Below, one piece after another: positions 213-25,118 of a stretch of 25,118 nt of DNA. Where the stretch lies: the IMG/VR virus record IMGVR_UViG_2667527914_000011; one strand, 5' to 3'. The position numbers and the translations under genes were made by a program. The notes beneath the pieces are model-generated. The model was not told where the DNA came from. It did not search any database and saw only the letters and a program-made list of their open reading frames with translations. The first letter of the stretch is position 1. Each line of letters opens with the position of its first letter. Source of the stretch: a virus (taxonomy: Duplodnaviria; Heunggongvirae; Uroviricota; Caudoviricetes).

Positions 213-797
213 TTACTCCCTGACAGGGTTCGTAGGCCACTCAATATCAGGTGCAGTTGACGTATCAACACGGTTCAGCAATACCCGATACTTTTTCCAT
301 GCTTCCAGCAACGAGATTTCTTCCTCCGTTGCAATTTCCAGATCTGCAGCATCCTGAAGCGGCGCAATATGCTCACTGGCTACCTGCATCAGGTTGTTTT
401 TTGTTTCTTCCGCCTCCCGGATCCGGAACAGTTTTTCTGCTTCCGTATCCTTCACCCAGGCTGTGCCGTTCCACTTCTGAAACTCCCCTTCCGGCGATAA
501 CCAGGTAACATTTTCCGGTAACGGACCGAGTTCAGAAATAAATAACGCGTCGCCGGAAGCCACGTCATAAACCGTTTTACCCCGATGATCTTCAACGAGA
601 TGCCACGATGACTCATCACTGTTGAAAACAGCCACGAAGCCAGCCGGAATATCTGGCGGTGCAATATCGGTACTGTTTGCTGGCAGACCTGTATGAGGCG
701 GAATATATGCATCACCTTCACCAATAAATTCATTAGTTCCGGCCAGCAGATTATAAATTTTTATGGTCCGTGGTTGTTCACTCATTCTGAATGCCAT
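213..797 (-). CDS. tfa: tail fiber assembly protein Tfa
   Basis: 194-aa ORF ([24 protein letters not shown]...DIEWP...) recognised as lambda Tfa, same length; ATG at 795..797 overlaps the stf stop (TAATG on minus strand). Confidence 0.9.
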
Positions 798-3757
798 TAT
801 GCAAGCCTCACAATATAGTTAAATGCGATGTTTTTGACGGTGTTTTCCGCGTTACCAGCAGCGTTAACGGTGATGGTGTGTCCATGTGAACCAATCGCAA
901 CGGAGTGCGTATGAGCACCAATACCGACAGTATGCGCGTGTGCACCTGCAGATGCTGCTGTGCCGGACAGTGAATGGCTATGATTACCATCTATACTGGT
1001 ATTCGCTAACCACCCCGTAGACATACCTACTGAGCCTTGTACACCCCAGGTATTTTGACCTGAGCTTGTATAACCATATTGATAAGTATCTTTAAAAACA
1101 CTGGGGTTAAATCGACGGCCATCTCTATGGCTGTGATTACCAGCTGCATTCGTGCTGCCACTTAAACTATGGGTATGCGCACCAGTGTTATTCGTGGATT
1201 TAGTGCCGTAATCAAACGACGATGTGGTTTTCGTCCCCAAATCCGTACTGGATGCGCTGGCGCTGTGGGTATGCGATTTAATGCCGTCCTGTTCCTGAGA
1301 CAATACGGCCCGACCACTGGCAGGTTTGCCCTTAATCGTCCAGCCACGCATATCAGGGATCACGCCTGACGGATAAGCCGCTGCAAGTTTCGGGTATGCA
1401 GATTTGTCAAAAGCCTGCCCCTGCATCAGGGCATAGCCAGACGGAACGGTATCTGATGGCCACGGGATTGGTGCGCCAGGCGGATAAAACTGCTCTGATG
1501 GCGTATAGAGTGAATAAACTGTACCGTCCGTTAACCCTTCCGGCTTATTAGCAGAATATGCTGGTGACGTATGAATCGTCACGCTGGCATTACTGGTATA
1601 ATCCCATTGAATATTTACACCAGTCGCATAATTTCCGATTGCAACGTAAATATCGTAAGTATCACCAGATGTATTAACCCAGGCAAAATTTGTAAACCCT
1701 GTCAATGTGCGCTGCCATAAAGCACCAGTAATCCCCTTCGGATTACCATTACCTGCACGTAAAACAAGTTCAGATATACCTGCCTGTTGAGGTGACCCCA
1801 CGTTAAATCCAGCGCCACCAATCAACGTAATTGAAACAACAGAACTCGCCTGTGGCATGGTTACCGTTGCTAATTTGAACCAACCAGCACCACCGCTGAA
1901 TGACATTGTTGTTGAGTTAAGCGTACCAATATCTTTCGGCGTCAGTGTTATATCCGCTGAAAGCGCCTTACCATTCACCTTACGGGCAGAAGGTACCCGA
2001 CCATTCGCATTGTCATTAGCTGCTTTCACTGCTTTCGGTGTCGCAGCAAGCGTTTCAGATGTGCTGTTGGTTGCACTACTGAGCTGGACAATTCCTTTTT
2101 GTGCTGTCGTAGCGTCCTGTGCGGTGTATTTCCCGTTAGCCAGGTCATACGCGGCCTTAACGGCTTTTGGCGTTGCCGCCTGTGACTCGGAAGTGCTGTT
2201 AGTCGCACTGCTGAGCTGAACTATCCCTTTCTGTGCTGTCGTTGCATCCTGTGCGGTGTATTTCCCGTTAGCCAGGTCATACGCGGCCTTAACGGCTTTT
2301 GGCGTTGCCGCCTGTGACTCGGAAGTGCTGTTGGTCGCACTGCTGAGCTGTACTATCCCCTTTTTCGTCGTGCTCGCATCCTCAAGCGCCACGGCGGATG
2401 CAATATCCTCTGCCCGTTTTGCTGCTGTCTCGGCGCGCGTTGCCGCGGATTCCGCCGTACTTTTGCTCTGTGCTGCCGCTGCCGCACTGCCAGCAGCCTC
2501 TGTCGCCTTCGTGGATGCCGTCGTGGCGCTGCCCCTCGCTGCTGACGCCTGTCTGGTCGCCTCATCTTTTGAAGCAGACGCAGATGATGCCGATGACGCC
2601 GCCGAACTGGCGGACGATGCGGCAGCCGTTTTTGAGGATTCTGCGCTGGTTTCCGACGCTTTCGCGTTCGTTTCGGATGTCTTCGCTGCGGAAGCAGACC
2701 TCGCTGCTGCGCTGGCCTGTTCAGTGGCTTCGCCAGCCTTCGTTGTGGCTGTTGAAGCGGATGATGCGGCGCTTTCTGCCGATTTTCCGGCGGCGGTGGC
2801 ACTGACTGCTGCCTCCTCTGCCTTAATGGACGCCTCACGGGCCGATGATGCAGCTGCTGTCTCAGAGTCTGCCGCAGCTGAGGCGCTCTGTTCCGCTGCC
2901 GTTTCAGAAGACTTAGCATTCGTCTCGGACGTTTTTGCCGCCTTCACGGAATTTCCTGCCGCCGTTGCCGAGGAGGCTGCACTGCTGGCGCTTGTGGAGG
3001 CGTTCGTTTCTGATGATTTTGCCGCCTCTTTGGAGGCCGCCGCATCTCTGGCTGAAGTGGCGGCTTCTGACGCTTTCGTTGTCGCAGTGGATGCAGAAGT
3101 GGCTGCTGATTTTTGTGACGCTGCAGCATTCGTTTCTGACGTTTTCGCCGCACCGGCACTGGTGGCCGCCGCGCTTTTTGAGGACTCTGCAGCGGCAGCA
3201 CTTTTTGATGCTTCAGTGGCCTTTGTTGATGCCGTTCCTGCGCTGGAAGACGCCTCCTGAGCCGAAGTCGCGGCCTGTCCGGCTGACGTGCTGGCTGCAC
3301 GCGCTGAGCCTGCAGCATCAGTCGCATGGGTTGCCGCCTCACGGGCAGATGTGCCGGCATCACTGGCTGACTTCTTCGCGGCTGCCGTGTTCTGTGCCAC
3401 CGCGGACGCGTTACGCGCCACCTCTTCCACCATCAGTTCAAAACGGCGCAGAGCCTCCGGACGGGCATCATCCTCCGTCATGGCACCGAGAAAATCATTC
3501 AGCGTACCGGGTCGGGAATCTTCATACACAGTGATGGTCCCGGCATGTGACGGCGGGAATCCTTCCACCAACAGAATAACGCTGTACTGACCGTACTCAA
3601 CGTCCATGCTGTAACGCCCGGCTTCATCCGGATTTTCTGAGGCCAGCGTGTTCACCACCACCGTGGTGCTGTTACGTTTTGCTTTCAGCTGGATTGTGCA
3701 GTTCTGTACCGGTTTTCCTGTGCCGTCTTTCAGTACACCTGAAATCTTTACTGCCAT
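797..3757 (-). CDS. stf: side tail fiber protein Stf, intact, with Ala/Ser/Thr-rich shaft and His-rich C-terminal tip
   Basis: N-terminus [35 protein letters not shown] and C-terminus [61 protein letters not shown] match lambda Stf as I recall it. The ORF track starts at a GTG at 3763; the ATG at 3757 follows a GGGGTG Shine-Dalgarno-like motif and is the likelier start. Confidence 0.85.
1996..2362 (-). repeat. in-frame tandem repeat inside stf, period 132 bp (44 aa), about 2.8 copies
   Basis: DNA repeat cctgtgcggtgtatttcccgttagccaggtcatacgcggccttaacggcttttggcgttgccgcctgtgactcggaagtgctgtt recurs at about 2116 and 2248; the protein shows [44 protein letters not shown] three times (third copy diverged). 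Confidence 0.8.
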
Positions 3758-3768
3758 ATTCACCCCAC

Positions 3769-3795
3769 AAAAAAGCCCGCCTGAACCGGCGGGCT
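3769..3795 (-). terminator. rho-independent terminator downstream of lom (minus strand: stem agcccgcc / ggcgggct followed by TTTTTT)
   Basis: GC-rich 8-bp stem with 6-nt loop and a U6 tract on the minus strand, between the lom stop and the stf start. Confidence 0.6.
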
Positions 3796-3821: not shown

Positions 3822-4421
3822 TCAGAACTTATAACCGACACCCACGATGAAACCGTCAGTGCGCCAGTCGCCACTGCCGGAGCCTTCATAAGCAATATCA
3901 ATGGCCACGGATTCGGTCGGGTTAAACTGCACGCCAGCTCCCCACGCCAGAGACGTGTTGCTGTGGCGACCGTCATCACTTCCGGTCAGCACGTCGTGCG
4001 TTTTCCCCTTGTTGTCAGTTACGCGGAGATAATCCCCGGAGAAAGTCGACACACGGCTGTAAGCCACACCCGCCATCGCATACGCGCTGAACCATTCATT
4101 CACGCGCACAGACGGCCCCGCCATTACGCTGAACCAGCGGTTACGAACGGAATCTTCATGCCAGCGGGTATCGCTGTAACGGGTCAGCTGGCGATTCTTG
4201 TCTCCTGCATAGCTGAATGACGTCACCAGCCCCAGCGTATCCGTAAACTCATAACGGTATTTCACGTTAATCCCGTTCAGATCATCACTGCCGGGAACGT
4301 TGGTCCGGGCATGAAGATACCCCGCGCTCAGCGTGGACTGATGTTCAGACGCCCATGCAGGCGCACCGGATACGGCCAGACAAATGGCTGCGGACAAAAT
4401 GGCGGCACAAACTTTACGCAT
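3822..4421 (-). CDS. lom: outer membrane protein Lom (Ail/Lom/PagC/OmpX family beta-barrel), complete copy
   Basis: 199-aa ORF with signal-peptide-like N-terminus MRKVCAAILSAAICLAVSGAPAWA and C-terminus DIAYEGSGSGDWRTDGFIVGVGYKF matching lambda Lom; GAGAGG Shine-Dalgarno motif upstream of the ATG; sits between J and stf as in lambda. Confidence 0.9.
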   Translation of the reverse strand: MRKVCAAILSAAICLAVSGAPAWASEHQSTLSAGYLHARTNVPGSDDLNGINVKYRYEFTDTLGLVTSFSYAGDKNRQLTRYSDTRWHEDSVRNRWFSVMAGPSVRVNEWFSAYAMAGVAYSRVSTFSGDYLRVTDNKGKTHDVLTGSDDGRHSNTSLAWGAGVQFNPTESVAIDIAYEGSGSGDWRTDGFIVGVGYKF

Positions 4422-4444
4422 AATTACCTCTCGCTTTTCTGCAA

Positions 4445-4476
4445 TAAAAAAGGCGTCATTCCTGACGCCATTTATT
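4445..4476 (-). terminator. hairpin with flanking A/T runs between the J-3' fragment and lom copy 1 (stem ggcgtca / tgacgcc); possible bidirectional terminator
   Basis: 7-bp stem with 4-nt loop, flanked by TTTTTTATT on the minus strand and ATTTATT on the plus strand. Confidence 0.5.
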
Positions 4477-4491
4477 GGGGTTATAAATATT

Positions 4492-4656
4492 TCAACGAAT
4501 ACTGATGCCGGAAGCCGCTTTTTTGGTCACAATCACCGTACAGTCGGTGATATTGCCTGCCCCCTGATTGCCTTTCTGGAAAATCTTAAACTCCAGAGTG
4601 ACGCTACCACCACCACTAGGCATATCAATAACTGCACTGTAACTACCGGGAATGGC
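4492..4656 (-). repeat. duplicated copy of the last 165 nt of J (3' end only), abutting the scaffold gap
   Basis: 4492..4656 appears identical by eye to 5216..5380; it encodes ...[54 protein letters not shown], the J C-terminus. Confidence 0.8.
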
Positions 4657-4691
4657 NNNNNNNNNNNNNNNNNNNNNNNNNNNNNNNNNNN
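4657..4691. other. assembly or scaffold gap (35 N)
   Basis: Run of 35 n characters in the sequence. Confidence 0.98.
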
Positions 4692-5145
4692 GACCGTCAT
4701 CACTTCCGGTCAGCACATCGTGCGTTTTCCCCTTATTGTCAGTTACGCGGATATAATCCCCGGAAAAAGTCGACACACGGCTGTAAGCCACACCCGCCAT
4801 CGCATACGCGCTGAACCATTCATTCACGCGCACAGACGGCCCCGCCATCACGCTGAACCAGCGGTTACGCACGGAATCTTCATGCCAGCGGGTATCGCTG
4901 TAACGGGTCAGCTGGCGATTCTTGTCTCCTGCATAGCTGAATGACGTCACCAGCCCCAGCGTATCCGTAAACTCATAACGGTATTTCACGTTAATCCCGT
5001 TCAGATCATCACTGCCGGGAACGTTGGTCCGGGCATGAAGATACCCCGCGCTCAGCGTGGACTGATGTTCAGACGCCCATGCAGGCGCACCGGATACGGC
5101 CAGGCAAATGGCTGCGGACAAAATGGCTGCACAAACTTTACGCAT
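4692..5145 (-). CDS. lom: second copy of lom, 5' portion only (about 151 codons); 3' end lost in the N gap
   Basis: Same N-terminus MRKVCAAILSAAICLAVSGAPAWA as copy 1; about 7 nucleotide differences from copy 1 over 454 nt, one non-synonymous (DYLRV versus DYIRV). Confidence 0.75.
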
Positions 5146-5168
5146 AATTACCTCTCGCTTTTCTGCAA

Positions 5169-5200
5169 TAAAAAAGGCGTCATTCCTGACGCCATTTATT
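5169..5200 (-). terminator. second copy of the J-lom intergenic hairpin
   Basis: Same sequence as 4445..4476. Confidence 0.5.
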
Positions 5201-5215
5201 GGGGTTATAAATATT

Positions 5216-8200
5216 TCAACGAATACTGATGCCGGAAGCCGCTTTTTTGGTCACAATCACCGTACAGTCGGTGATATTGCCTGCCCCCTGATTGCCTTTC
5301 TGGAAAATCTTAAACTCCAGAGTGACGCTACCACCACCACTAGGCATATCAATAACTGCACTGTAACTACCGGGAATGGCACCTTTAGTTTCTCTGGATG
5401 CGATTAATACGCCGTTTTTGCGAACTTCAAAACCATAACCCGTGTATCGCGTGCCTCCTGGGTTATTTCCGCTCCCCGGATCGTCATACGCTATACCGTT
5501 AAAAATAATGGGCGGAATAATAATCTGGCGGTCAAAGTTATGATCATCGCTTATGGTGACTGTAACCGTCCCGTTTGGTGTTTCCGTGTTACCCCACGTA
5601 CCAGCCTGTTTCGGAAATGATTTGGATACAGCTTTAACGAAGTCACCTCTGACCTGAGTCGCCTCCAGCATGCCCTTAATCGTACAGTTTTCATTTACCG
5701 TGACATTGTTGAGCGTCCCGGCGTTCGCATTCACACTGCCACTGATATCCGCATTTTTAGCGGTCAGCTTTCCGTCCGGAGTCAGGGAAAATGCCGATGG
5801 ATTTCCACCGCTGGTAATGGTGGGGGCCGTCAGGCGTTTCAGGAACACGTCGTTCATGAATATCTGATCGCCCTGACCAACAAACATCGGTTTTGTGTTG
5901 CCATTCGCAGGATTAACCATCGCAATCCTGTCCGCCGCCAGCAGCACCTGACTCTGCATGCCGTCAGGGGTGTTCTCAATACCGGCACCAATACCCGCGA
6001 TATAAAGGCGTCCGTCCTGCATCTGCTGCAGCTTCACAGCCCACATGCTGTTCAGGTTATTATTTGTATCAACCTGAACCTTCTGTATCTGCTGAATTGC
6101 CGCACTCTGGTCTTCCAGTTTCTTATTGACGGTCTGCGTGATTTCATTGCTGACATCCGTAATGGACGTCCTGATTTCAGCCAGGTCAGGCGCAAGCTGA
6201 CCGTTATCAATCTGCGTCCACAGCTCCTGAGCCAGATGGGTTTTCCCTATCTCGCCTTTGAAAAAATCCAGATAACCGGATGCATCATCACTCGGCTGAC
6301 CAACAGCCTCCACGAATGCCGATTTGCCAACGGTGTTCACACTGCGGATATAAAAGTAATAATCATGGCCCGGTTTGATATTGATACTGGCGGCTATCCA
6401 GTACAGCGCCGTGCCAAGATAGCGTGCTGTGGTTTCAACCTGCCTGATATCCGCAATCCGCTTTTCCGAGAACCAGAACTCAAACTGTACCGTCGGATCA
6501 TAAACCGCAAGATGCGGCGTGGCGGTTATCTGAAAATAGCCCGGCGTCAGCTCAATCCGCGACAGCGCTGCCGGTGCGGCAATCCGGAACGATACCGACG
6601 CCGGATCGCCCTGCTGCCCCCACGCATTTACTGCCCGGACTGTCAGCCTGTAGTTCCCCAGCGCCAGTTGTGTGAAGCGGTAAGTGGTTTCCGTCGTCCG
6701 GGCCGTGCTGACCAGCCGCTCACTGCCGTCATCCGCTGTTACGGTCAGACGGAGCAGGAAGCTCACGCCCTTCACCACCTTCGGCGTGTCCCAGCGCGCC
6801 AGCACCTGATATTCCCCGCTGTCTGCGGTGACTTCGGCAGTCAGGTGCTGCACCGCTGGCGGCGTGACACCATTCACCGTGCCGCTCTGGTCGCCGTCAA
6901 AGTGCGCCCCGTTATCCACGATGGCTTCTTTTTCCGGCACATGCTGCACGGCGGTGATGGCATACGTGCCGTCGTCGTTCTCACGGATACTCACGCAGCG
7001 GAACAATCGCTGGTGCAGCGTCGGCAGCTTCAGCCCCCACACGCTGTATTCAGCAACACCGTCAGGAACACGGCTCACTTTTACCTTCACGCCGTCGGTG
7101 ACGGACTGGACCTCCACGCTGACCGGATTCCCCTGCCCGTCAACCAGGCTTATCAGCGTGGTGCCGGAGGATGGCAGCGTGATTTCACGGTCGAGCGTCA
7201 GCGTCCGGGTCTGGCTGTTCACCGCCAGCACGCGCCCGCCGGTGCGGATACCGGCATAGTCATCATCGCAGATTTCAATGACATCGCCCGGTACATGACG
7301 AAGCCCTTCAGCACCCACGCTGAAATCCACGGTCTGCGTCTCCAGCAGTTCCGTTTTAATCAGCCACAGCCCGGCGCGGTGTGCCTGCCCCCGGCTGGTA
7401 CAGCCAAAGGCATCCATCTTCGTGACGTTACGACCGTAACGGACAATGGCCTGCGTATCCTCCACAAGCTCTGTCGCCGTCTCCCAGCCGTTATCCGGGT
7501 CAATCCAGTTCACCTCAACGGCATTATGGCGGTCTTTCAGGGCGCTGAAACTGTAGCGGAACGGCGCGCCATCATCCGGCATCACCACATTACTGCGGTT
7601 ATAGGCCCACACCTTATCCGACTGTCGGTCCTGCACGAACGTCAGCGTCTGCCCGTTCCATACCGGCATACAGCGCATCGCCGAGCAGAAATCACTGAGC
7701 ACATCCCACGCCTTGCGCTGTGTGGTCAGCCAGGCATTACAGGTGATGCGCGGCTCCGTGCTGCCAAAGCCGTCCGGCACCGACTGGTCACAGTACTGGC
7801 CGATGACATACAGCGCCCATTTATCCACATCTGCCGCACCAAGACGTTTCCCCATGCCATAGCGCGGATGGGTCAGCATATCCCACAGACACCAGGCCAT
7901 GTTGTTGCTGTATGCCGGTTTTAACGTTCCGTCCCAGATACCGCTGTATTGCCGCGTCTGCGGATTATAGTTCGACGGCACCTGCAGAATGCGCCCGCGA
8001 AGATGATAATTACGGCTCACCTGCTGGCTGCCGAACTGCTCCGAATCCACCTGTACGCCGACCAGTGCCGTGTTCGGGTAGCACTGTTTCACATCGATGA
8101 TTTCGGTGTATGACGACCAGAGCGTTTTGTTCTGCAGCTGGTCTGTGGTGCTGTCCGGCGTCATTCTGCGCATCCGGATATTAAACGGGCGCGGCGGCAG

Positions 8201-8713
8201 GTTATCCACCACCACCGAGGCCAGATACTGCGAGGTGGTTTTGCCCTTAATGGTGATGTCTTTTTCCGTCACCCAGCCACCGTTACGCTGTATCTGAACC
8301 AGCAGGCGAACTTCAGACGGATTCCTGTCTCCCTTTGAGGTGGTTTCCACCAGTGCCTGTACACCGAAGGTAAAACGCAGTCGGTCAATGTTTGCCGACG
8401 TGATGGTCCGGGTGATCGGCGTGTCATATTTCACTTCCGTACCCAGCACCGTCTCGGAGCCGGAGGATTCAAATCCCTCCGGCGGTGACTGCTCCTGCTC
8501 ACCTGCCCGGAACACCACCGTGACGCCGGAGATGTTGGTATTCCCCTCACTGTCCAGCACCGGCGTACTGTTCAGCAGCACGCTTTTTAATCCATCCACC
8601 GGACCTTCAACCGGCCCTTCGCTGATGGCATCGATCACACTCAGCAGCTGCGTGGACTTCAGGTTGTCCTTCGCTTCGCGCGGGGTATGCCCCTTACTGC
8701 TGCCTTTACCCAT
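5216..8713 (-). CDS. J: tail tip / central tail fiber protein J (host-specificity protein), 1165 aa, with a C-terminal domain unlike lambda J
   Basis: N-terminal roughly 800 aa ([34 protein letters not shown]...) match lambda J as I recall it; the C-terminal roughly 365 aa diverge and the protein is 33 aa longer than lambda J (1132 aa). Confidence 0.9.
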
Positions 8714-8773: not shown

Positions 8774-9445
8774 TCAGCGACCAATCACCACAACCTGACC
8801 ACCGTCCCCTTCGTCTGCCGTGCTGATCTCCTGAGATACCACACGTGACCCCACGCGCATTTCACCATACAGAACAGGCATAACATTGCCCTGGGCAACC
8901 ATGTTATCCAGTGAGGAGAAATAGGTGTTCTGCTTACCGTTATCCGTTGTCTGTGTGCGGGGAGTTCTGGCTTTCGGTGCCAGCATCTGAGCCACACCGC
9001 CGAGCACCATACTGGCACCGAGAGAAAACAGAATGCCGGTCATACCACCGGCACCAATGGCAGCCCCCCATGCTGCAAGGGTGGCTCCGGCGGTAAAGAA
9101 TGATCCGGCAATGGCGGCTGCTCCCAGGACAATCTGGAATACACCACCTGACTTGGCCCCGGCGACTCTGGGAACAATATGAATCACAGCGCCGTCAGGC
9201 AGAGCCTCATGTAACTGTGCCGTTAATCCGGACGTGCTAACATCCTGCCCGGCAATACGCACCTGATACCAGCCGTCGCTCAGCTTCTGACGAAACGCAG
9301 GGAGCTGTGTGGCCATCGCCCGGATGGCTTCGGCACCCGTTTTCACACGAAGGTCGATGCGGCGGCCAAATCGTTGCAAATCCCCGTAAAGGCAGATGCG
9401 TGCCATGCCCGGTGACGCCAGAGGGAGTGTGTGCGTCGCTGCCAT
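8774..9445 (-). CDS. I: tail tip assembly protein I
   Basis: 223-aa ORF MAATHTLPLASPGMARICLYGDLQRFGRRIDLRVKTGAEAIRA..., same length as lambda I; position between K and J. Confidence 0.9.
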   Translation of the reverse strand: MAATHTLPLASPGMARICLYGDLQRFGRRIDLRVKTGAEAIRAMATQLPAFRQKLSDGWYQVRIAGQDVSTSGLTAQLHEALPDGAVIHIVPRVAGAKSGGVFQIVLGAAAIAGSFFTAGATLAAWGAAIGAGGMTGILFSLGASMVLGGVAQMLAPKARTPRTQTTDNGKQNTYFSSLDNMVAQGNVMPVLYGEMRVGSRVVSQEISTADEGDGGQVVVIGR

Positions 9446-10086
9446 TTGTCGGTATACCTCTCTCGTTTGCTCAGTTGTTCAGGAATATGGTGCAGCAGCT
9501 CGCCGTCACCACAGTAAATGGCGGCATGATTCGGCACCGATGAACCAAAACAGCACAGCAGCACATCGCCCGGCTGCGCCGCTGACAACGGCACCTGATA
9601 CAGCCCTGTGGCCTCCAGATTATCCAGATAGAGATTCTGACCGTGACGCCACCAGTCATCCTCACGATGAAAATCCGGCATCTCAATCCCCGCCAGATGG
9701 TAAGCATCCCGGAACAGCGTGTAACAGTCCGTCACCCCGTGCTCAAAGCGCCGCCCGGTAAGATGTGGCACACAGCGGAACTTGTGAATCGCCCCCCGGC
9801 AGACCAGCCACCACGGCAAATCACTCTGCACCTGCAGCCGCCGGTCGGCCTCACTCAGCCAGGGCAGACCACCGGGGTGGCTGTGGACCAGTGCCACAAT
9901 CTCACCCTGCATCTCTGCCTGCAGCCAGTCTTCCGGCGACATACGGAAATACGCCTCCGGCTCACCGGAGATATTCACGCAGGGGAAATATCTTTCCCCC
10001 TCCGGCGTTCTTACCACGAAGCCGCACGACTCCGCTGGAGCACATCGCCGGGCGTGCGCCAGAATCGCTGATTCTGTCTCTGTCAT
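9343..10086 (-). CDS. K: tail tip assembly protein K (JAMM/MPN plus NlpC/P60 domains); long form 247 aa, alternative internal start at 9942 gives the 199-aa form
   Basis: HSHPGG...SEAD JAMM-like motif; ORF begins 5 nt after the L stop and overlaps I by 103 nt in another frame, as in lambda. Confidence 0.85.
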   Translation of the reverse strand: MTETESAILAHARRCAPAESCGFVVRTPEGERYFPCVNISGEPEAYFRMSPEDWLQAEMQGEIVALVHSHPGGLPWLSEADRRLQVQSDLPWWLVCRGAIHKFRCVPHLTGRRFEHGVTDCYTLFRDAYHLAGIEMPDFHREDDWWRHGQNLYLDNLEATGLYQVPLSAAQPGDVLLCCFGSSVPNHAAIYCGDGELLHHIPEQLSKRERYTDKWQRRTHSLWRHRAWHASAFTGICNDLAAASTFV

Positions 10087-10091
10087 GGGAT

Positions 10092-10790
10092 TTACTGCGA
10101 AAGTTTGTTAATGGAAAGGAAGCCGCCAAAGTTGCCGACGTTATTGCGAAACTTACAGCCACTCAGGCATTTGCTGCATTTATCCTTCGTGATGTCGGAC
10201 GTTGGCTGGTCATATTCATCCGCGACCGCCGGACCGTGATAACCGCACTCATCGCCGCGATAGGTCCAGGTGCAGGTGTTGGCCAGCATGATACGTCCCG
10301 GAAAAACAGCGCCATCTGTTTCCGTCGGCGTGGACAGTACAAAAGAGGCACTCACCGCGCTCAGTTCGCTGCACTGCTCAATGCGCCAGCGGCTGATCAC
10401 CTCCTGCTCCGGATCGGCGTCACTGTTTCCGTTGACGAAGTTCACCGCATCCAGAAAACGGGCGTAAACCTTACGCCGGACCACCGTTCCGCCGACCAGA
10501 CTCTGTAGATCTTCCGCCATCCCGGTGACCATACCGTACAGGTTAGAAACCATCAGCGTGGGGCGCGTACTGGTGCCTTTGCCATTCAGTTCAAAACCAC
10601 TCCCCTGAATGGGATACGGCTGATACTGTCGCCCCTGCCAGGTGACCGGCTCACCTTTTTCGTTCTGCTCATTACAGAAAAAATAACGTTCTCCACCGAC
10701 CTCTGTCAGATCGATTTCCCAGAGCACCACGCTGGCCGACTGCTCCGCACGGGTGCATTCATTCAGTGTTTCCTGCCGGATATCCTGCAT
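10092..10790 (-). CDS. L: tail tip assembly protein L (C-terminal Cys cluster)
   Basis: 232-aa ORF MQDIRQETLNECTRAEQSASVVLWEIDLTEVGGERYFFCNEQ..., lambda L length; C-terminal CSKCLSGC cysteine motif. Confidence 0.9.
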   Translation of the reverse strand: MQDIRQETLNECTRAEQSASVVLWEIDLTEVGGERYFFCNEQNEKGEPVTWQGRQYQPYPIQGSGFELNGKGTSTRPTLMVSNLYGMVTGMAEDLQSLVGGTVVRRKVYARFLDAVNFVNGNSDADPEQEVISRWRIEQCSELSAVSASFVLSTPTETDGAVFPGRIMLANTCTWTYRGDECGYHGPAVADEYDQPTSDITKDKCSKCLSGCKFRNNVGNFGGFLSINKLSQ

Positions 10791-11119
10791 CAGTTCACCA
10801 CCTGTTCAAACTCTGCGCTGAACTCAACACGCAGCATACTGACCCGCGACGACCATTTTGCGCAGGTCACCTTTATCTGCCGCCACTCATAAGGCGGCGT
10901 CCACAGAAAGGCTTTCCAGCCCCCGTGCTCTTCCAGAAACGACTCCAGTACCATGGCCTCCTCACGGGGGACAGAAAGCGTCACGCTGTACGTTTTCAGG
11001 TTGGCATTCAGCCCGGCAGGCGCTCGCTGGGAATAGCCATCACCAAAGCGCACCTTTCTTACAGAAGGGGCCGAAGCCACATCCATACCGGGTTTCACTT
11101 TCCAGCGGAAGGTTTTCAT
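10790..11119 (-). CDS. M: tail tip assembly protein M
   Basis: 109-aa ORF MKTFRWKVKPGMDVASAPSVRKVRFGDGYSQRAPAGLNANLKTYS..., lambda M length and position. Confidence 0.9.
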   Translation of the reverse strand: MKTFRWKVKPGMDVASAPSVRKVRFGDGYSQRAPAGLNANLKTYSVTLSVPREEAMVLESFLEEHGGWKAFLWTPPYEWRQIKVTCAKWSSRVSMLRVEFSAEFEQVVN

Positions 11120-13677
11120 CGTCCACCTCCGGAGAACAGGCCACCATCACGCATCTGTGTCTGAATTTCATCACGGGCACCCTTGCGGGCCATGTCATAC
11201 ACGGCCTTCATCATCTGTGGACCTGGCAGACCATTCGTACCGTCGTTCTGAATCACCACGTGATTGTTCTGATTAAAATTAATGCCTTCAGCCCGCCGCA
11301 TCTGCGCCGGACTTCCGGCACCGCCCACATAACCACCTTCCGCATAGCCGCGCATCAGCCGGTAGAGATTCCCCACGCCAATCCGGCTGGTTGCCTCCTT
11401 CGTGAAGACAAATTCACCACGGTGAACAATCCCCGCTGGCTCATATTTGCCGCCGGTTCCCGTAAATCCCCCGGTTGCAAAATGGAATTTCACCGCAGCG
11501 GCCTGAATGGCTGTACCACCTGACGCGGATGCGCCGCCACCAACAGCCCCGCCAATGGCGCTGCCGATACTCCCGACAATCCCCACCATTGCCTGCTTAA
11601 GCAGAATTTCTGTCATCATGGACAGCACGGAGCGGGTGAAGCTGCGCCAGTTCTGTTCACTGCCGGTCAGCATCGCCGCCATATTCTGTGCAATACCATC
11701 AAAGGTCTGCGTGGCTGCACTTTTAACCTGTGACATACTGTCCGTGGCGCTCTCTTCCCACTCACTCCAGCCGGACTTCAGGCCTGCCATCCAGCTCCCG
11801 CGAAGCTGGTCTTCAGCCGCCCAGGTCTTTTTCTGCTCTGACATGACGTTATTCAGCGCCAGAGGATTATCGCCATACTGTTCCTTCAGGCGCTGTTCCG
11901 TGGCTTCCCGCGCTGCCTGCCGGTCAGTCAGCCCCCGGTTTTTCGCATCAATGGCTGCCCGTTTTGCCCGTTGCTGCTGTGCGAATTTATCCGCCTGCTG
12001 CGCCAGCGCATTCAGGTGCTCCTGATACGTAACCTTGTCACCAAGTGCAGCCAGCTGGCGTTTGTACTCCAGCGTCTCGTCTTTATGCGCCAGCAGGGAT
12101 TTCTCCTGTGCGGACAGCTGGCGACGTTGTGCCGCCTCCTCCAGTACCGCGAACTGACTTTCTGCCTTCCACAAATCCCGGCGCTGCTGGCTGATTTTCT
12201 CATTCGCTCCGGCATGCTTCTCCAGCGTCCGGAGTTCTGCCTGAAGCGTCAGCAGGGCCGCATGAGCACTGTCTTCCTGACGATCGCCCGCATACACCTT
12301 CACGCCGGACTGTTTCGGCTTTTTCAGCGTCGCTTCATAATCCTTTTTCGCCGCCGCCATCAGCGTGTTGTAATCTGCCTGCAGGATTTTTCCGTCTTTC
12401 AGTGCCTTGTTCAGTTCTTCCTGACGGGCGGTATATTTCTCCAGCGGCGTCTGCAGCCGTTCGTAAGCCTTCTGCGCCTCTTCGGTATATTTCAGCCGTG
12501 ACGCTTCGGTATCGCTCTGCTGCTGCGCATTTTTGTCCTGTTGACGCTGTTGATCTACCCTCTTTTGGGCTGCATCCCGCTCCAGGCGTTTTTTTTCACG
12601 ATCATCCCAGTAACGCGCCCGTGCTTCATCGTTAACGAAATAATCATCCTTGCGCAGATTCCAGATGTCGTCTGCTTTCTTAAACGCAGCCTCTGCCTTA
12701 ATCAGCATCTCCTGCGCGGTATCAGGACGACCAATATCCAGCACCGCATCCCACATGGATTTGAATGCACGTGCAGTCCTGTCTGCCCAGGTCTCCAGCG
12801 TGCCCATGTTCTCTTTCAGGCGGCGGGTCTGGTCATCAAACCCTTTCGTTGCGGCCTCGTTCGCCGCCTGCAATGCCCCGGCTTCATCGCCGGAACGCTG
12901 CAACTGAGCAACATACGCAATCTGCTCCGCCGTCACGTTATGGAACTGGCGTGCCATCGCCGTCAGCCCCGACGTCGGGTCTGTGGTCAGCTTCCCGAAG
13001 GCTTCAGCGACCTTGTCCACCTCCACGCCGGATGCATAGGAGAAACGCGCCACACTCTGGCTGATGGACGCAATCTGAGCCTCACCGCTTACCCCCGCCT
13101 TAACCAGTGCGCTGAGTGACTCGCTGGTCTGGTTAAACGTCAGCCCTGCCGCCTGCCCGGCTCTGGACAGGACCAGCATACGATCTGCCGTCAGTCCCGC
13201 CTGATTACCGGAAAGGACCAGCGTTTTGTTGAAATCGGACAGGGTTGAGTTGCCCTGATACCAGGCATACGCCAGCGCACCGGTCGCCACCGCCAGCGAG
13301 GTGGCCCCCACCATCGGCAGGGTGATCGCGCCGGCAAGCCCCCTGAACATGGGGATCATCCCGCCGAAGGAGTCCTTAACCTGACCACCCTGTTGCAGCA
13401 GGATCAGCCAGGGATTCTGCCCCCCTGCAAGCTGCGTGGCCACGTCGGTGAACTGTGCAGGCAGCATACGCATGGCGGCTTTATACTGCCCGACGGAAAT
13501 CCCCGCTTTCTGTGCAGCCAGCGCCTGTCGGCTCAGCGACTGTTCAACGACTGCCGCTGTTTTTTTCGCATCACTTTCCGTACCGGAAAAATGACGCCTG
13601 ACTCTGGCCATCTGCTCGTCAAATCTGGCCGCATCCAGACTCAAATCAACGACCAGATCGCCTACCGGTTCAGCCAT
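11116..13677 (-). CDS. H: tail tape measure protein H
   Basis: 853-aa ORF, same length as lambda H; coiled-coil-rich middle and Gly-rich C-terminus; 4-nt overlap with M, 8-nt overlap with T. Confidence 0.9.
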   Translation of the reverse strand: MAEPVGDLVVDLSLDAARFDEQMARVRRHFSGTESDAKKTAAVVEQSLSRQALAAQKAGISVGQYKAAMRMLPAQFTDVATQLAGGQNPWLILLQQGGQVKDSFGGMIPMFRGLAGAITLPMVGATSLAVATGALAYAWYQGNSTLSDFNKTLVLSGNQAGLTADRMLVLSRAGQAAGLTFNQTSESLSALVKAGVSGEAQIASISQSVARFSYASGVEVDKVAEAFGKLTTDPTSGLTAMARQFHNVTAEQIAYVAQLQRSGDEAGALQAANEAATKGFDDQTRRLKENMGTLETWADRTARAFKSMWDAVLDIGRPDTAQEMLIKAEAAFKKADDIWNLRKDDYFVNDEARARYWDDREKKRLERDAAQKRVDQQRQQDKNAQQQSDTEASRLKYTEEAQKAYERLQTPLEKYTARQEELNKALKDGKILQADYNTLMAAAKKDYEATLKKPKQSGVKVYAGDRQEDSAHAALLTLQAELRTLEKHAGANEKISQQRRDLWKAESQFAVLEEAAQRRQLSAQEKSLLAHKDETLEYKRQLAALGDKVTYQEHLNALAQQADKFAQQQRAKRAAIDAKNRGLTDRQAAREATEQRLKEQYGDNPLALNNVMSEQKKTWAAEDQLRGSWMAGLKSGWSEWEESATDSMSQVKSAATQTFDGIAQNMAAMLTGSEQNWRSFTRSVLSMMTEILLKQAMVGIVGSIGSAIGGAVGGGASASGGTAIQAAAVKFHFATGGFTGTGGKYEPAGIVHRGEFVFTKEATSRIGVGNLYRLMRGYAEGGYVGGAGSPAQMRRAEGINFNQNNHVVIQNDGTNGLPGPQMMKAVYDMARKGARDEIQTQMRDGGLFSGGGR

Positions 13678-17058: not shown

Positions 17059-18084
17059 TTACGCCAGTTGAACGGACACGAACTCATCAGGATCAGCCAG
17101 CAGCATCAGCGGTGCTGACTGAATCATGGTGAACTCACGCGCCGGATCGCCGGTGGTCACCCAGTTTTTCGGGTAACGGGCAGAAGCGTTAATGCCTTCG
17201 CGCTGTGCGTCCGCATCCTGAATGCAGCCATAGGTGCGCAGACCGCGAGCCTGAGTGTTCCCCAGCACCATCGTGTTGTCCGGCAGGAAGTTCTTTTTGA
17301 CGCCGTTTTCCACGTACTGTCCGGAATACACGACGATGGCCACATCGCCATACATTCCCTTATAGGACACCGCTTTGCCCAGGTCTTTTACCGCTGTCTC
17401 CAGCTCGGAATGAGAGCCGCGACGGGTATCCAGCTTCTCCTTGACGGCTTTGAAGGAACGGAACAGCGCCCAGCCTTTCGGGTCAAACACGATGATATTC
17501 ACCACACCGCTGGCGTTCAGCGCGTAGGCTTCGATATCGTCGGTCGGGTCATACGTGGACTTGTCACGCTTGCTCCACTCCGTGACGCCGGACTGTGTGA
17601 TGTTGTTCGCCGCACTGCGGCCCATATCCACCTCAACCGGATCGAAGGCTTCACCGGTCATGGTGTATTTGCCCTTGAGCACGGCAGAAACTGCCTGCAT
17701 CTCTTCGACCTGAGCAATGGCCAGCTCTTCGTCACGCATGTTCTGCATGATGATGCGACGGCGGCGGTAAGCCGGGTCCGCCAGATTCTGCGGATCTTCA
17801 TCCGGCAGGCGACGCAGGGTCATCTGCGGATTCACCTCATGCTTGGGTTTGACATATCCCGGCGTAAATTCAGAGGTGGAGCCGCCACGGGAACGGATAA
17901 CCTCACCGGAAACAATCGGCGAAACGTACAGCGCCATGTTTACCAGTCCCGGAATTTGTGAGAGATAGACTTTCTCCGTAGTGAAGGGATAGCTCTCACG
18001 GAAAAAGAGACGCAGAAACAGCGGATCAAACTTAAATTTCTGCTCATTTGCCGCCAGCAGCTGGGCGGTTGTGTACATCGACAT
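17059..18084 (-). CDS. E: major capsid protein E
   Basis: MSMYTTAQLLAANEQKFKFDPLFLRLFFRESYPFTTEKVYLSQIPGLVNMALYVSPIVSGEV..., 341 aa from the internal Met; 55-nt gap after D as in lambda. Confidence 0.92.
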   Translation of the reverse strand: MSMYTTAQLLAANEQKFKFDPLFLRLFFRESYPFTTEKVYLSQIPGLVNMALYVSPIVSGEVIRSRGGSTSEFTPGYVKPKHEVNPQMTLRRLPDEDPQNLADPAYRRRRIIMQNMRDEELAIAQVEEMQAVSAVLKGKYTMTGEAFDPVEVDMGRSAANNITQSGVTEWSKRDKSTYDPTDDIEAYALNASGVVNIIVFDPKGWALFRSFKAVKEKLDTRRGSHSELETAVKDLGKAVSYKGMYGDVAIVVYSGQYVENGVKKNFLPDNTMVLGNTQARGLRTYGCIQDADAQREGINASARYPKNWVTTGDPAREFTMIQSAPLMLLADPDEFVSVQLA

Positions 18085-23508: not shown

Positions 23509-24028
23509 TCAGCAACCCCGGTATCAGTTCATCCAGCGCGGCTGCTTTGTTCATGGCTTTGATGATATCCCGTTTCAGGAAATCAACATGTCGGTTTTCC
23601 AGTTCCGGAAAACGCCGCTGCACCGACAGGGGGATCCCGTCGAGAATACTGGCAATTTCACCTGCGATCCGCGACAGCACGAAAGTACAGAATGCGGTTT
23701 CCACCACTTCAGCGGAGTCTCTGGCATTTTTCAGCTCCTGTGCGTCGGCCTGCGCACGCGTAAGTCGATGGCGTTCGTACTCAATAGTCCCTGGCTGGAG
23801 ATCTGTCTCGCTGGCCTGCCGCAGTTCTTCAACTTCCCGGCGCAGCTTTTCGTTCTCAATTTCAGCATCCCTTTCGGCATACCATCTTATAACGGCGGCA
23901 GAGTCATAAAGCACCTCATTACCCTTGCCACCGCCTCGCAGAACGGGCATTCCCTGTTCCTGCCAGTTCTGAATGGTACGGATACTCGCACCGAAAATGT
24001 CAGCCAGCTGCTTTTTGTTGACTTCCAT
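23483..24028 (-). CDS. Nu1: terminase small subunit Nu1
   Basis: 181-aa ORF MEVNKKQLADIFGASIRTIQNWQEQGMPVLRGGGKGNEVLYDSAAV..., lambda Nu1; winged-HTH N-terminus. Confidence 0.92.
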
Positions 24029-24039
24029 TGTTCATTCCA

Positions 24040-24330
24040 CGGACAAAAACAGAGAAAGGAAACGACAGAGGCCAAAAAGCCCGTTTTCAGCACCTGTCGT
24101 TTCCTTTCTTTTCAGGGGGTGTTTTAAATAAAAACATTAGGTTACGGCGAAGAAGAACGGAAACGCCTTAAACCGGAAAATTGTCATAAATAGCGAAAAC
24201 CCGCGCGCCTTCCGCCCCGTAACCTGTCGGATCGCCGGAAAGGACCCGCAAAATGATAATAATTATCATCTACATGTCACAACGTGCATCTACGCCATCA
24301 AACCACGTCAAATAATCAATTATGACGCAG
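24040..24330. other. cos DNA-packaging site region (cosB next to Nu1, cosN, cosQ side); joined, i.e. prophage or circular form
   Basis: Sequence either side of 24206..24217 matches the reverse complement of the lambda left end (...ccggaaaatt.tcataaatagcgaaaacccgcg) and right end (cgtaacctgtcggatc.ccggaaaggacccg...) as I recall them. Confidence 0.8.
24206..24217. other. cosN 12-nt cohesive-end position; overhang would be GGGCGGAAGGCG in lambda orientation, versus canonical GGGCGGCGACCT
   Basis: Plus strand cgccttccgccc, flanked by conserved ccgcg and cgtaacc; the six bases distal to GGGCGG differ from lambda as recalled. Confidence 0.55.
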
Positions 24331-24416
24331 GTATCGTATTAATTGATCTGCATCAACTTAACGTAAAAACAACTTCAGACAATACAAATCAGCGACACTG
24401 AATACAGGGCAACCTC

Positions 24417-24650
24417 ATGTCAACGAAGAACAGAACCCGCAGAACAACAACCCGCAACATCCGCTTTCCTAACCAAATGATTGAACAAATTAACATCGCT
24501 CTTGTTCAAAAAGGGTCCGGGAATTTCTCAGCCTGGGTCATTGAAGCCTGCCGCCGGAGACTGTGCTCAGAAAAAAGAGTTTCGCCTGAAGCAAACAAAG
24601 AAAAGAGTGACATTACTGAATTGCTCAGAAAACAGGTTAGACCAGATTGA
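24417..24650 (+). CDS. small basic protein with a possible ribbon-helix-helix (Arc/CopG-like) fold; conserved right-end ORF
   Basis: 77-aa ORF; basic N-terminus (RTRRTTTRNIRF) then NIRFPNQMIEQINIALVQKGSGNFSAWVIEACRRRL, a strand-helix-loop-helix pattern; weak Shine-Dalgarno motif. Confidence 0.45.
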   Translation: MSTKNRTRRTTTRNIRFPNQMIEQINIALVQKGSGNFSAWVIEACRRRLCSEKRVSPEANKEKSDITELLRKQVRPD

Positions 24651-24707
24651 AGCAATTTAGATAATCGTGCAGACTACGCCCCCTCATATCACATGGAAGG
24701 TACTACA

Positions 24708-25118
24708 ATGGCTCAGGTTGCCATTTTTAAACAAATATTCGATAAAGTGCGAAATAATTTAAACTATCACTGGTTTTATTCTGAACTAAAACGTCACAAT
24801 GTCTCACATTACATTTACTATTTAGCCACAGAGAATATTCATCTTGTTCTTGAAAACGATAATACGGTTTTAATAAAAGGACAGGGTAAGGTTGTAAATG
24901 TAAGATTTTCAAAAAATAAATGCCTTATAGAAGCCACCTTAAAAGGATTCAAATCAGGAGAGTTATCATTTTACGAATACAGGAAAAATCTTGCTACAGC
25001 AGGGGTTTTCAGATGGATTACAAATATCCACGAAAACAAAAGGTATTACTATACCTTTGATAATTCATTACTCTTTACTGAGAACATACAGAACACTACA
25101 CAAATATTTCCGCACTAA
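24708..25118 (+). CDS. hypothetical protein of the lambdoid right end (possibly YbcV/DUF1398-like), 136 aa from the second Met
   Basis: GGAAGG Shine-Dalgarno-like motif 8 nt upstream of the ATG at 24708; AT-rich codon usage typical of the lambda right arm; stop codon at the window end (25116..25118). Confidence 0.5.

Follow-up and report, generated by a model that had tools for sequence, protein, structure and literature searches.

The J protein (gpJ) of phage lambda contacts its porin, LamB, through four bottom loops of a receptor-binding domain (RBD), and the alpha-helical shaft (AHS) of the protein is formed by residues 809-861 (PMC11101478). When the gene of phage 434 stands in place of lambda J, binding switches to OmpC, the receptor of 434 (PMC3509688, PMC11101478), and natural variants of the gpJ C-terminus grafted onto lambda have likewise been used for retargeting to OmpC (PMC11338833). 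Here, the J gene in a 25,118-nucleotide stretch of tailed-phage DNA (IMG/VR record IMGVR_UViG_2667527914_000011; the whole stretch is called the window) was compared with these systems. The comparison points to a J that unites a lambda-type body, a long shaft and a 434-type RBD, and whose receptor is very probably OmpC rather than LamB.

For this comparison, J was aligned at the protein and nucleotide (nt) levels with the J of lambda, 434, phi458, Lambda_ev087, 640R1 (vB_EcoS-640R1) and Stx2a_F349. An earlier sequence-only reading had described the first ~800 amino acids (aa) of J as lambda-like and the last ~365 as divergent, and both statements held: against lambda J (NP_040600), 778 of 801 residues (97%) are identical over aa 1-801, and 175 of 364 (48%) over aa 802-1165. 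Within the divergent block, aa 806 (window 6296-6298) is the first residue to differ; it lies 12 nt from position 6310, where that reading had set the border. The peptides it had quoted were also recovered, that of the window in the J translation and that of lambda, ...VQVMVIKKQALGISV(V), in lambda J. Over the last 150 aa, identity to lambda falls to 53 of 150 residues (35%), with insertions and deletions (indels) in three predicted loops; members of the lambda LamB-binding RBD class would share more than 90% over the last ~150 aa, and the view that the receptor-binding end is not that of lambda thus stands.

The onset of divergence is abrupt. In 90-nt windows, nucleotide identity to lambda drops from 89-97% to 26-37% at J nt 2461-2640, and because the step is so large, the alignment marks a sharp recombination boundary there rather than scatter or drift. 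Downstream of this boundary, the C-terminal 365 aa are unevenly divergent: aa 806-900 differ strongly and carry a 28-aa insertion, aa 941-1000 are ~90% lambda-like, and aa 1011-1165 again differ strongly. The mosaic end proposed by the sequence-only reading is therefore divergent as claimed, but it is not one block; it consists instead of two independent modules, a long shaft allele and a 434-type RBD, separated by a conserved hinge.

Module A, the N-terminal body, is 97-98% identical in amino acid sequence to its counterparts in lambda, 434, phi458 and Lambda_ev087, and only 75% identical to that of Stx2a_F349. Over J nt 1-2400, nucleotide identity to lambda, 434, phi458, Lambda_ev087 and 640R1 is 95.6-97%. 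Module B, which holds the shaft, is 28 aa longer than the lambda or 434 counterpart, with 26-66% nucleotide identity to those two phages. Its segment aa 831-900 is 21-23% identical to lambda and 434 across the 28-aa gap and 99-100% identical to phi458, ev087, 640R1 and F349, which places the window J among the long-AHS alleles. An AlphaFold2 (AF2) model of aa 800-1000, built from the single sequence, placed moderately confident helices at aa 821-836 and 841-899, at a mean predicted local distance difference test (pLDDT) score of 47; these helices would fit a longer shaft and are weak evidence for it.

Module C, the lower fibre and RBD, matches 434 closely. Identity to 434 J is 100% over aa 1011-1030 and 94% over aa 1031-1165, the latter segment being 33-41% identical to lambda, ev087, 640R1 and F349. 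Across the last 150 aa, 142 residues (95%) are shared with 434 J without a gap, an identity that assigns the domain to the 434-type (h434) RBDs, and at the nucleotide level the RBD is 94.6-94.8% identical to 434 and to the hybrid phage lambda h434 imm21 (94.6% for the hybrid). A different receptor from that of lambda, as the earlier reading had predicted from the divergent end, is thus supported by these alignments and can be narrowed to that of a 434-type domain. OmpC, the porin given in the literature for both 434 and h434 (PMC3509688, PMC11101478), is the most likely receptor in view of the 95% identity between the two RBDs, that of phage 434 and that of the window.

The phages in the alignment carry these modules in other combinations. 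In 434, this RBD is paired with a short lambda-type shaft, and in ev087, 640R1 and F349, this long shaft (99-100% identical) is paired with other RBDs (38-41% identical). For this reason, shaft and RBD are seen from the alignments to assort independently in nature around the conserved hinge. Within the hinge, nucleotide identity of ev087, 640R1 and F349 to the window goes down to 72-93%. Aa 941-1000 are the likely site of homologous crossover between the two modules.

The predicted fold of the C-terminal domain was then compared with solved structures. By phmmer, the C-terminal region can be aligned over its whole length with the gpJ structures of lambda and A8. The AF2 model of aa 1001-1165, made from a shallow alignment of 10 sequences (the homologues are mostly fragments of near-identical E. 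coli proteins) and of medium confidence, is all-beta, with pLDDT 75.8 and a predicted template modelling (TM) score of 0.72. In a Foldseek search of the PDB, the top match was 9wcb (A8 gpJ with OmpC; TM 0.72, 44% identity in the structural alignment), along with 8xck (lambda gpJ in the closed state without LamB; TM 0.74, 37% identity) and 8xcj (lambda gpJ with LamB; TM 0.72). The RBD of the window is accordingly homologous to that of lambda and predicted to share its Ig-like fold. When the alignment and the model are read together, predicted loops 1038-1047, 1074-1091 and 1140-1149 hold the indels that set the domain apart from its lambda counterpart, a placement consistent with the porin-contacting bottom loops of lambda.

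As judged by Pfam, J carries FNIII-A_GpJ, Phage-tail_3, Ig_J, Ig_J_second, Phage_Tail_Tip and Ig_GpJ_C in the lambda order, all exceeding the curated cut-offs, with Ig_GpJ_C at aa 1029-1164 (E 3e-25). This gives the architecture of the gpJ family (hub, two FNIII/Ig domains, tail-tip fibre and C-terminal Ig-like RBD), and the operon position is that of the family as well, after H-M-L-K-I and before lom and stf, as read from the order of open reading frames (ORFs), Pfam and synteny. By analogy with lambda (PMC11101478), the window J would assemble as a trimer at the tail tip and trigger tail opening on receptor contact.

From these observations, a working model can be outlined. The N-terminal 805 aa, comprising the hub and FNIII domains, are a lambda-type body that matches the genes I, K, L, M and H upstream, which are also of lambda type; from aa 806, the helical shaft of lambda gives way to an allele longer by 28 aa, and after the hinge J ends in the 434-type Ig-like RBD. 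By analogy to the solved lambda-LamB mechanism, the bottom loops of an RBD trimer would enter a trimeric porin, most likely OmpC, and the binding signal would pass up the beta-prism and the longer helical shaft until the tail tip opens, as it does in lambda with LamB. The most likely origin of this combination is homologous recombination, in which lambdoid prophages residing in the same host exchanged modules through the conserved stretches on either side; that such stretches flank each module fits this kind of exchange.

Several points weigh against so direct an assignment of OmpC. Relative to 434, eight residues are changed among the last 150, with Q1036K, A1037V, N1047D, D1078N and G1143W in or beside predicted loops, and position 1143 varies among close relatives (G in the window, W in 434, R in phi458). 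One mutation in J gives phage 21 the use of OmpC, so few changes may shift the receptor (PMC11336670). In lambda h434 imm21 (OM418627), lambda DNA gives way to 434 DNA between record positions 17619 and 17637, corresponding to J aa 705-711, and 434 DNA continues from there at least into the start of stf; the hybrid has lom and stf of 434 too, and so does not by itself map host range to the RBD. The region of the longer shaft is weakly modelled (AF2 pLDDT 47). In the searchable literature, no receptor assays were found for phi458, mEp332 or the PhiR phages, whose J is near-identical, and Mathieu et al. 2020 reported only four J clusters, which did not track host range.

Loop polymorphisms could have moved the specificity of a 434-like RBD to certain OmpC alleles only, or to another porin such as OmpF. 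Besides the phage 21 case, the eight differences from 434 would allow for this, since they include loop positions 1047, 1078 and 1143, as would the finding that A8 and 1A2 gpJ chimeras tell OmpC alleles apart (PMC11338833). We nevertheless consider such a shift unlikely: the domain is 95% identical to that of 434 without indels, nothing points to another receptor, and the exact allele is common (protein cluster P0001, 99% identical to the window RBD, has 735 member sequences), which fits a working and widespread specificity. Retention of LamB binding deserves next to no credence. The fold family is shared with the lambda RBD, and phage 21, which has a lambda-like J, uses LamB; set against this, only 35% of the last 150 residues match lambda, three predicted loops carry indels, and the near-identical 434 domain confers dependence on OmpC and not LamB (PMC3509688). 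OmpC, bound through a 434-type RBD, is thus retained as the predicted receptor.

It was also considered that the non-lambda end might be a chimera of assembly, with a second prophage in the source genome contributing the 3' end of J. Beside J lies a run of 35 N (4657-4691) between 689-nt near-duplicates of the J tail and lom head (8 mismatches), and this duplication is absent from complete genomes. The whole of J (5216-8713), however, is on one side of the gap, an identical three-module J (96-98% identity) recurs in complete phage genomes that were sequenced independently, and the module borders show no discontinuity beyond that shared with those phages. A chimera as the source of the mosaic is highly improbable and was rejected, as complete phage genomes have the same J.

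The duplication itself is a 724-bp tandem copy of the J tail, intergenic terminator and lom head, in which 4692-5380 equals 3968-4656 with the 35 N between. Of the 689 nt compared between its arms, all 8 mismatches lie in lom, and the J-tail and intergenic parts are identical. The best matches in complete genomes span 1,977 bp against the 2,701 bp of the window and so are without the duplication, and a pattern scan of genome contigs for the junction of lom head, N run and J tail gave 0 matches. The duplication is probably a scaffolding artefact flanking the gap, possibly a real and private one, and in either case leaves the functional J untouched. A terminator-like hairpin with a T-run is found directly after J (5176-5193, minus strand; consensus scan), with an identical copy at 4452-4469 and another at 3774-3795 after lom; five were found in all, with 1.6 expected by chance.

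Fusions of the Lom head to a J tail are not confined to the ORF downstream of the window J, others being proteins P0034 and P0050. In the complete E. coli R18 chromosome (CP186506.1; L007, 6001-6468), J encodes an A8-type RBD, and next to it comes an ORF in which Lom aa 1-46 run at a shared 'SDD' into aa 1057-1165 of a 434-type J; an intact lom lies beyond. This arrangement resembles a scar left when an RBD cassette was replaced through two crossovers, one of them homologous and the other illegitimate. As a single piece, the R18 lom::J junction was found only in that genome among 5,426 complete genomes, with other matches showing the normal J-lom order, so that a widespread feature could be ruled out. 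P0050, a second fusion of this kind, has a different junction. The lom::J scars are private events, and recombination is ongoing. It is very unlikely that the 28-aa extension of the shaft is functional (a fibre ~4 nm longer or an altered threshold for tail opening, with shaft and RBD co-selected, for instance for reach through O-antigen), or that ORFs fusing the Lom signal peptide to a J tail are expressed envelope proteins, acting for instance in superinfection exclusion, rather than dead scars.

Beyond J, the window covers the late (structural) arm of a temperate, lambda-like phage or prophage, its genes lying on the minus strand in the order terminase, portal, head genes, V, G/T, H, M, L, K, I, J, lom, stf, tfa (features are collected in Table 1). 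It is 96-97% identical over 92-97% of its length to PhiR42_1, Kati, PhiR34_1, mEp332 and ev099.

Table 1. Positions of J, its modules and neighbouring features in the window
Feature	Position	Strand	Product or extent	Basis
J, tip attachment / central tail fibre protein	5216-8713	minus	1165 aa, intact ORF	ORF list, translation
Module A, hub domains and two FNIII/Ig domains, lambda type	6299-8713	minus	aa 1-805	aa and nt alignments
Module B, long AHS allele and upper beta-prism fibre	5894-6298	minus	aa 806-940	aa and nt alignments
Conserved hinge	5714-5893	minus	aa 941-1000	89-94% nt identity to lambda and 434, divergent sequence on both sides
Module C, lower fibre and Ig-like RBD, 434 type, predicted OmpC binder	5216-5713	minus	aa 1001-1165 and stop	alignments, Pfam, AF2
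Lom::J-tail fusion ORF	4492-5145	minus	Lom aa 1-153, 12 unknown codons (35-N run 4657-4691), J aa 1113-1165, in frame	translation; Pfam Ail_Lom and Ig_GpJ_C
lom, Ail/Lom outer-membrane protein	3822-4421	minus	199 aa, full length	Pfam Ail_Lom, E 2.5e-122, full profile
stf, side tail fibre	797-3763	minus	988 aa, intact	Pfam phage_tail_N, Phage_fiber_2, Collar
tfa, tail fibre assembly	213-797	minus	194 aa, intact	Pfam Caudo_TAP; 94% identical to lambda Tfa
Upstream tail-tip genes, I to H, lambda order	8774-13677	minus		Pfam
I	8774-9445	minus		Lambda_tail_I
K	9343-10086	minus		Prok-JAB and NLPC_P60
L	10092-10790	minus		Phage_tail_L
M	10790-11119	minus		Phage_min_tail
H, tape measure	11116-13677	minus		TMP_2 and Tape_meas_lam_C

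The side fibre genes of the window are intact, unlike those of laboratory lambda PaPa, in which stf/tfa are not. The C-terminal 230 aa of Stf, its tip, share 72% identity with lambda orf314, the His-rich repeat region being rearranged. Since the Stf of ur-lambda is reported to bind OmpC, both adhesins, J and Stf, may by analogy target the same porin. Within stf, GC content rises to 0.59-0.61 and AT skew reaches -0.41 at window 2001-3500, a shift to which an Ala/Ser/Thr-rich low-complexity stretch in the N-terminal part of Stf may contribute. At the other end, window 24001-25118, beyond the small terminase gene, has a GC content of ~0.40; judged by alignment, this is still phage DNA because PhiR42_1 and Kati match through position 25000.

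The RBD (window 5216-5713) was found in 2,092 of 5,426 complete E. coli genomes (~39%) at a coverage of 80% or more, and in 74 phage records, which include 434, lambda h434 imm21, cdtI, 2851 and many Stx1a and Stx2c phages. The mosaic J is thus not unusual, with several sequenced phages carrying the same J, and together with its RBD allele it is an already described and very common variant, found as the same mosaic many times in GenBank. The h434 allele has been in use since the 1960s, and nothing here would surprise a lambda specialist. The host range of the prophage becomes predictable, most likely dependent on OmpC through J, with intact lambda-like side fibres, and the locus shows neatly how J exchanges modules; beyond annotation, its importance is small. 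The hinge belongs to the C-terminal portion of gpJ that is swapped in lambda particles engineered to target OmpC (PMC11338833).

The closest relatives over the full length of J are phi458, ev099, cdtI, Ayreon, Kati, mEp332 and PhiR34_1, which have the same three-module build at ~96% nucleotide identity over 3,498 nt (96.4% for full-length ev099 J). The J of phi458 is identical to that of the window at 458 of 465 residues over the C-terminal 465 aa, and full-length matches differ from the window by point changes only (e.g. G1127R, Q1138H and G1143R versus phi458). Phage 434 J (UMO75362) and the h434 allele (OM418627) are 95% identical to the window over the last 150 aa, with equal length and the same C-terminus. 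The N-terminal 805 aa of 434 J are 98% identical, and its gene likewise sits between I and lom; it differs in its short lambda-type shaft, the window being 28 aa longer with 21-65% identity over aa 806-960.

Lambda J (NP_040600; 8IYK, 8XCK, 8XCJ) shares with the window its domain order, the conserved hinge and the predicted Ig-like fold of the RBD, but differs in a shaft that is 28 aa shorter and in an RBD that is 35% identical, and is a LamB binder (PMC11101478). The A8-type gpJ RBD (9wca, 9wcb, OmpC-bound), a natural OmpC-binding variant (PMC11338833), has the same fold as that predicted for the window. Closely related A8-type RBDs are carried by Lambda_ev087, Stx2a_F349 and the E. coli R18 prophage, in ev087 and F349 on the same long shaft as that of the window; the RBDs of these two phages are 39-41% identical to the window over aa 1031-1165 and have other loops.

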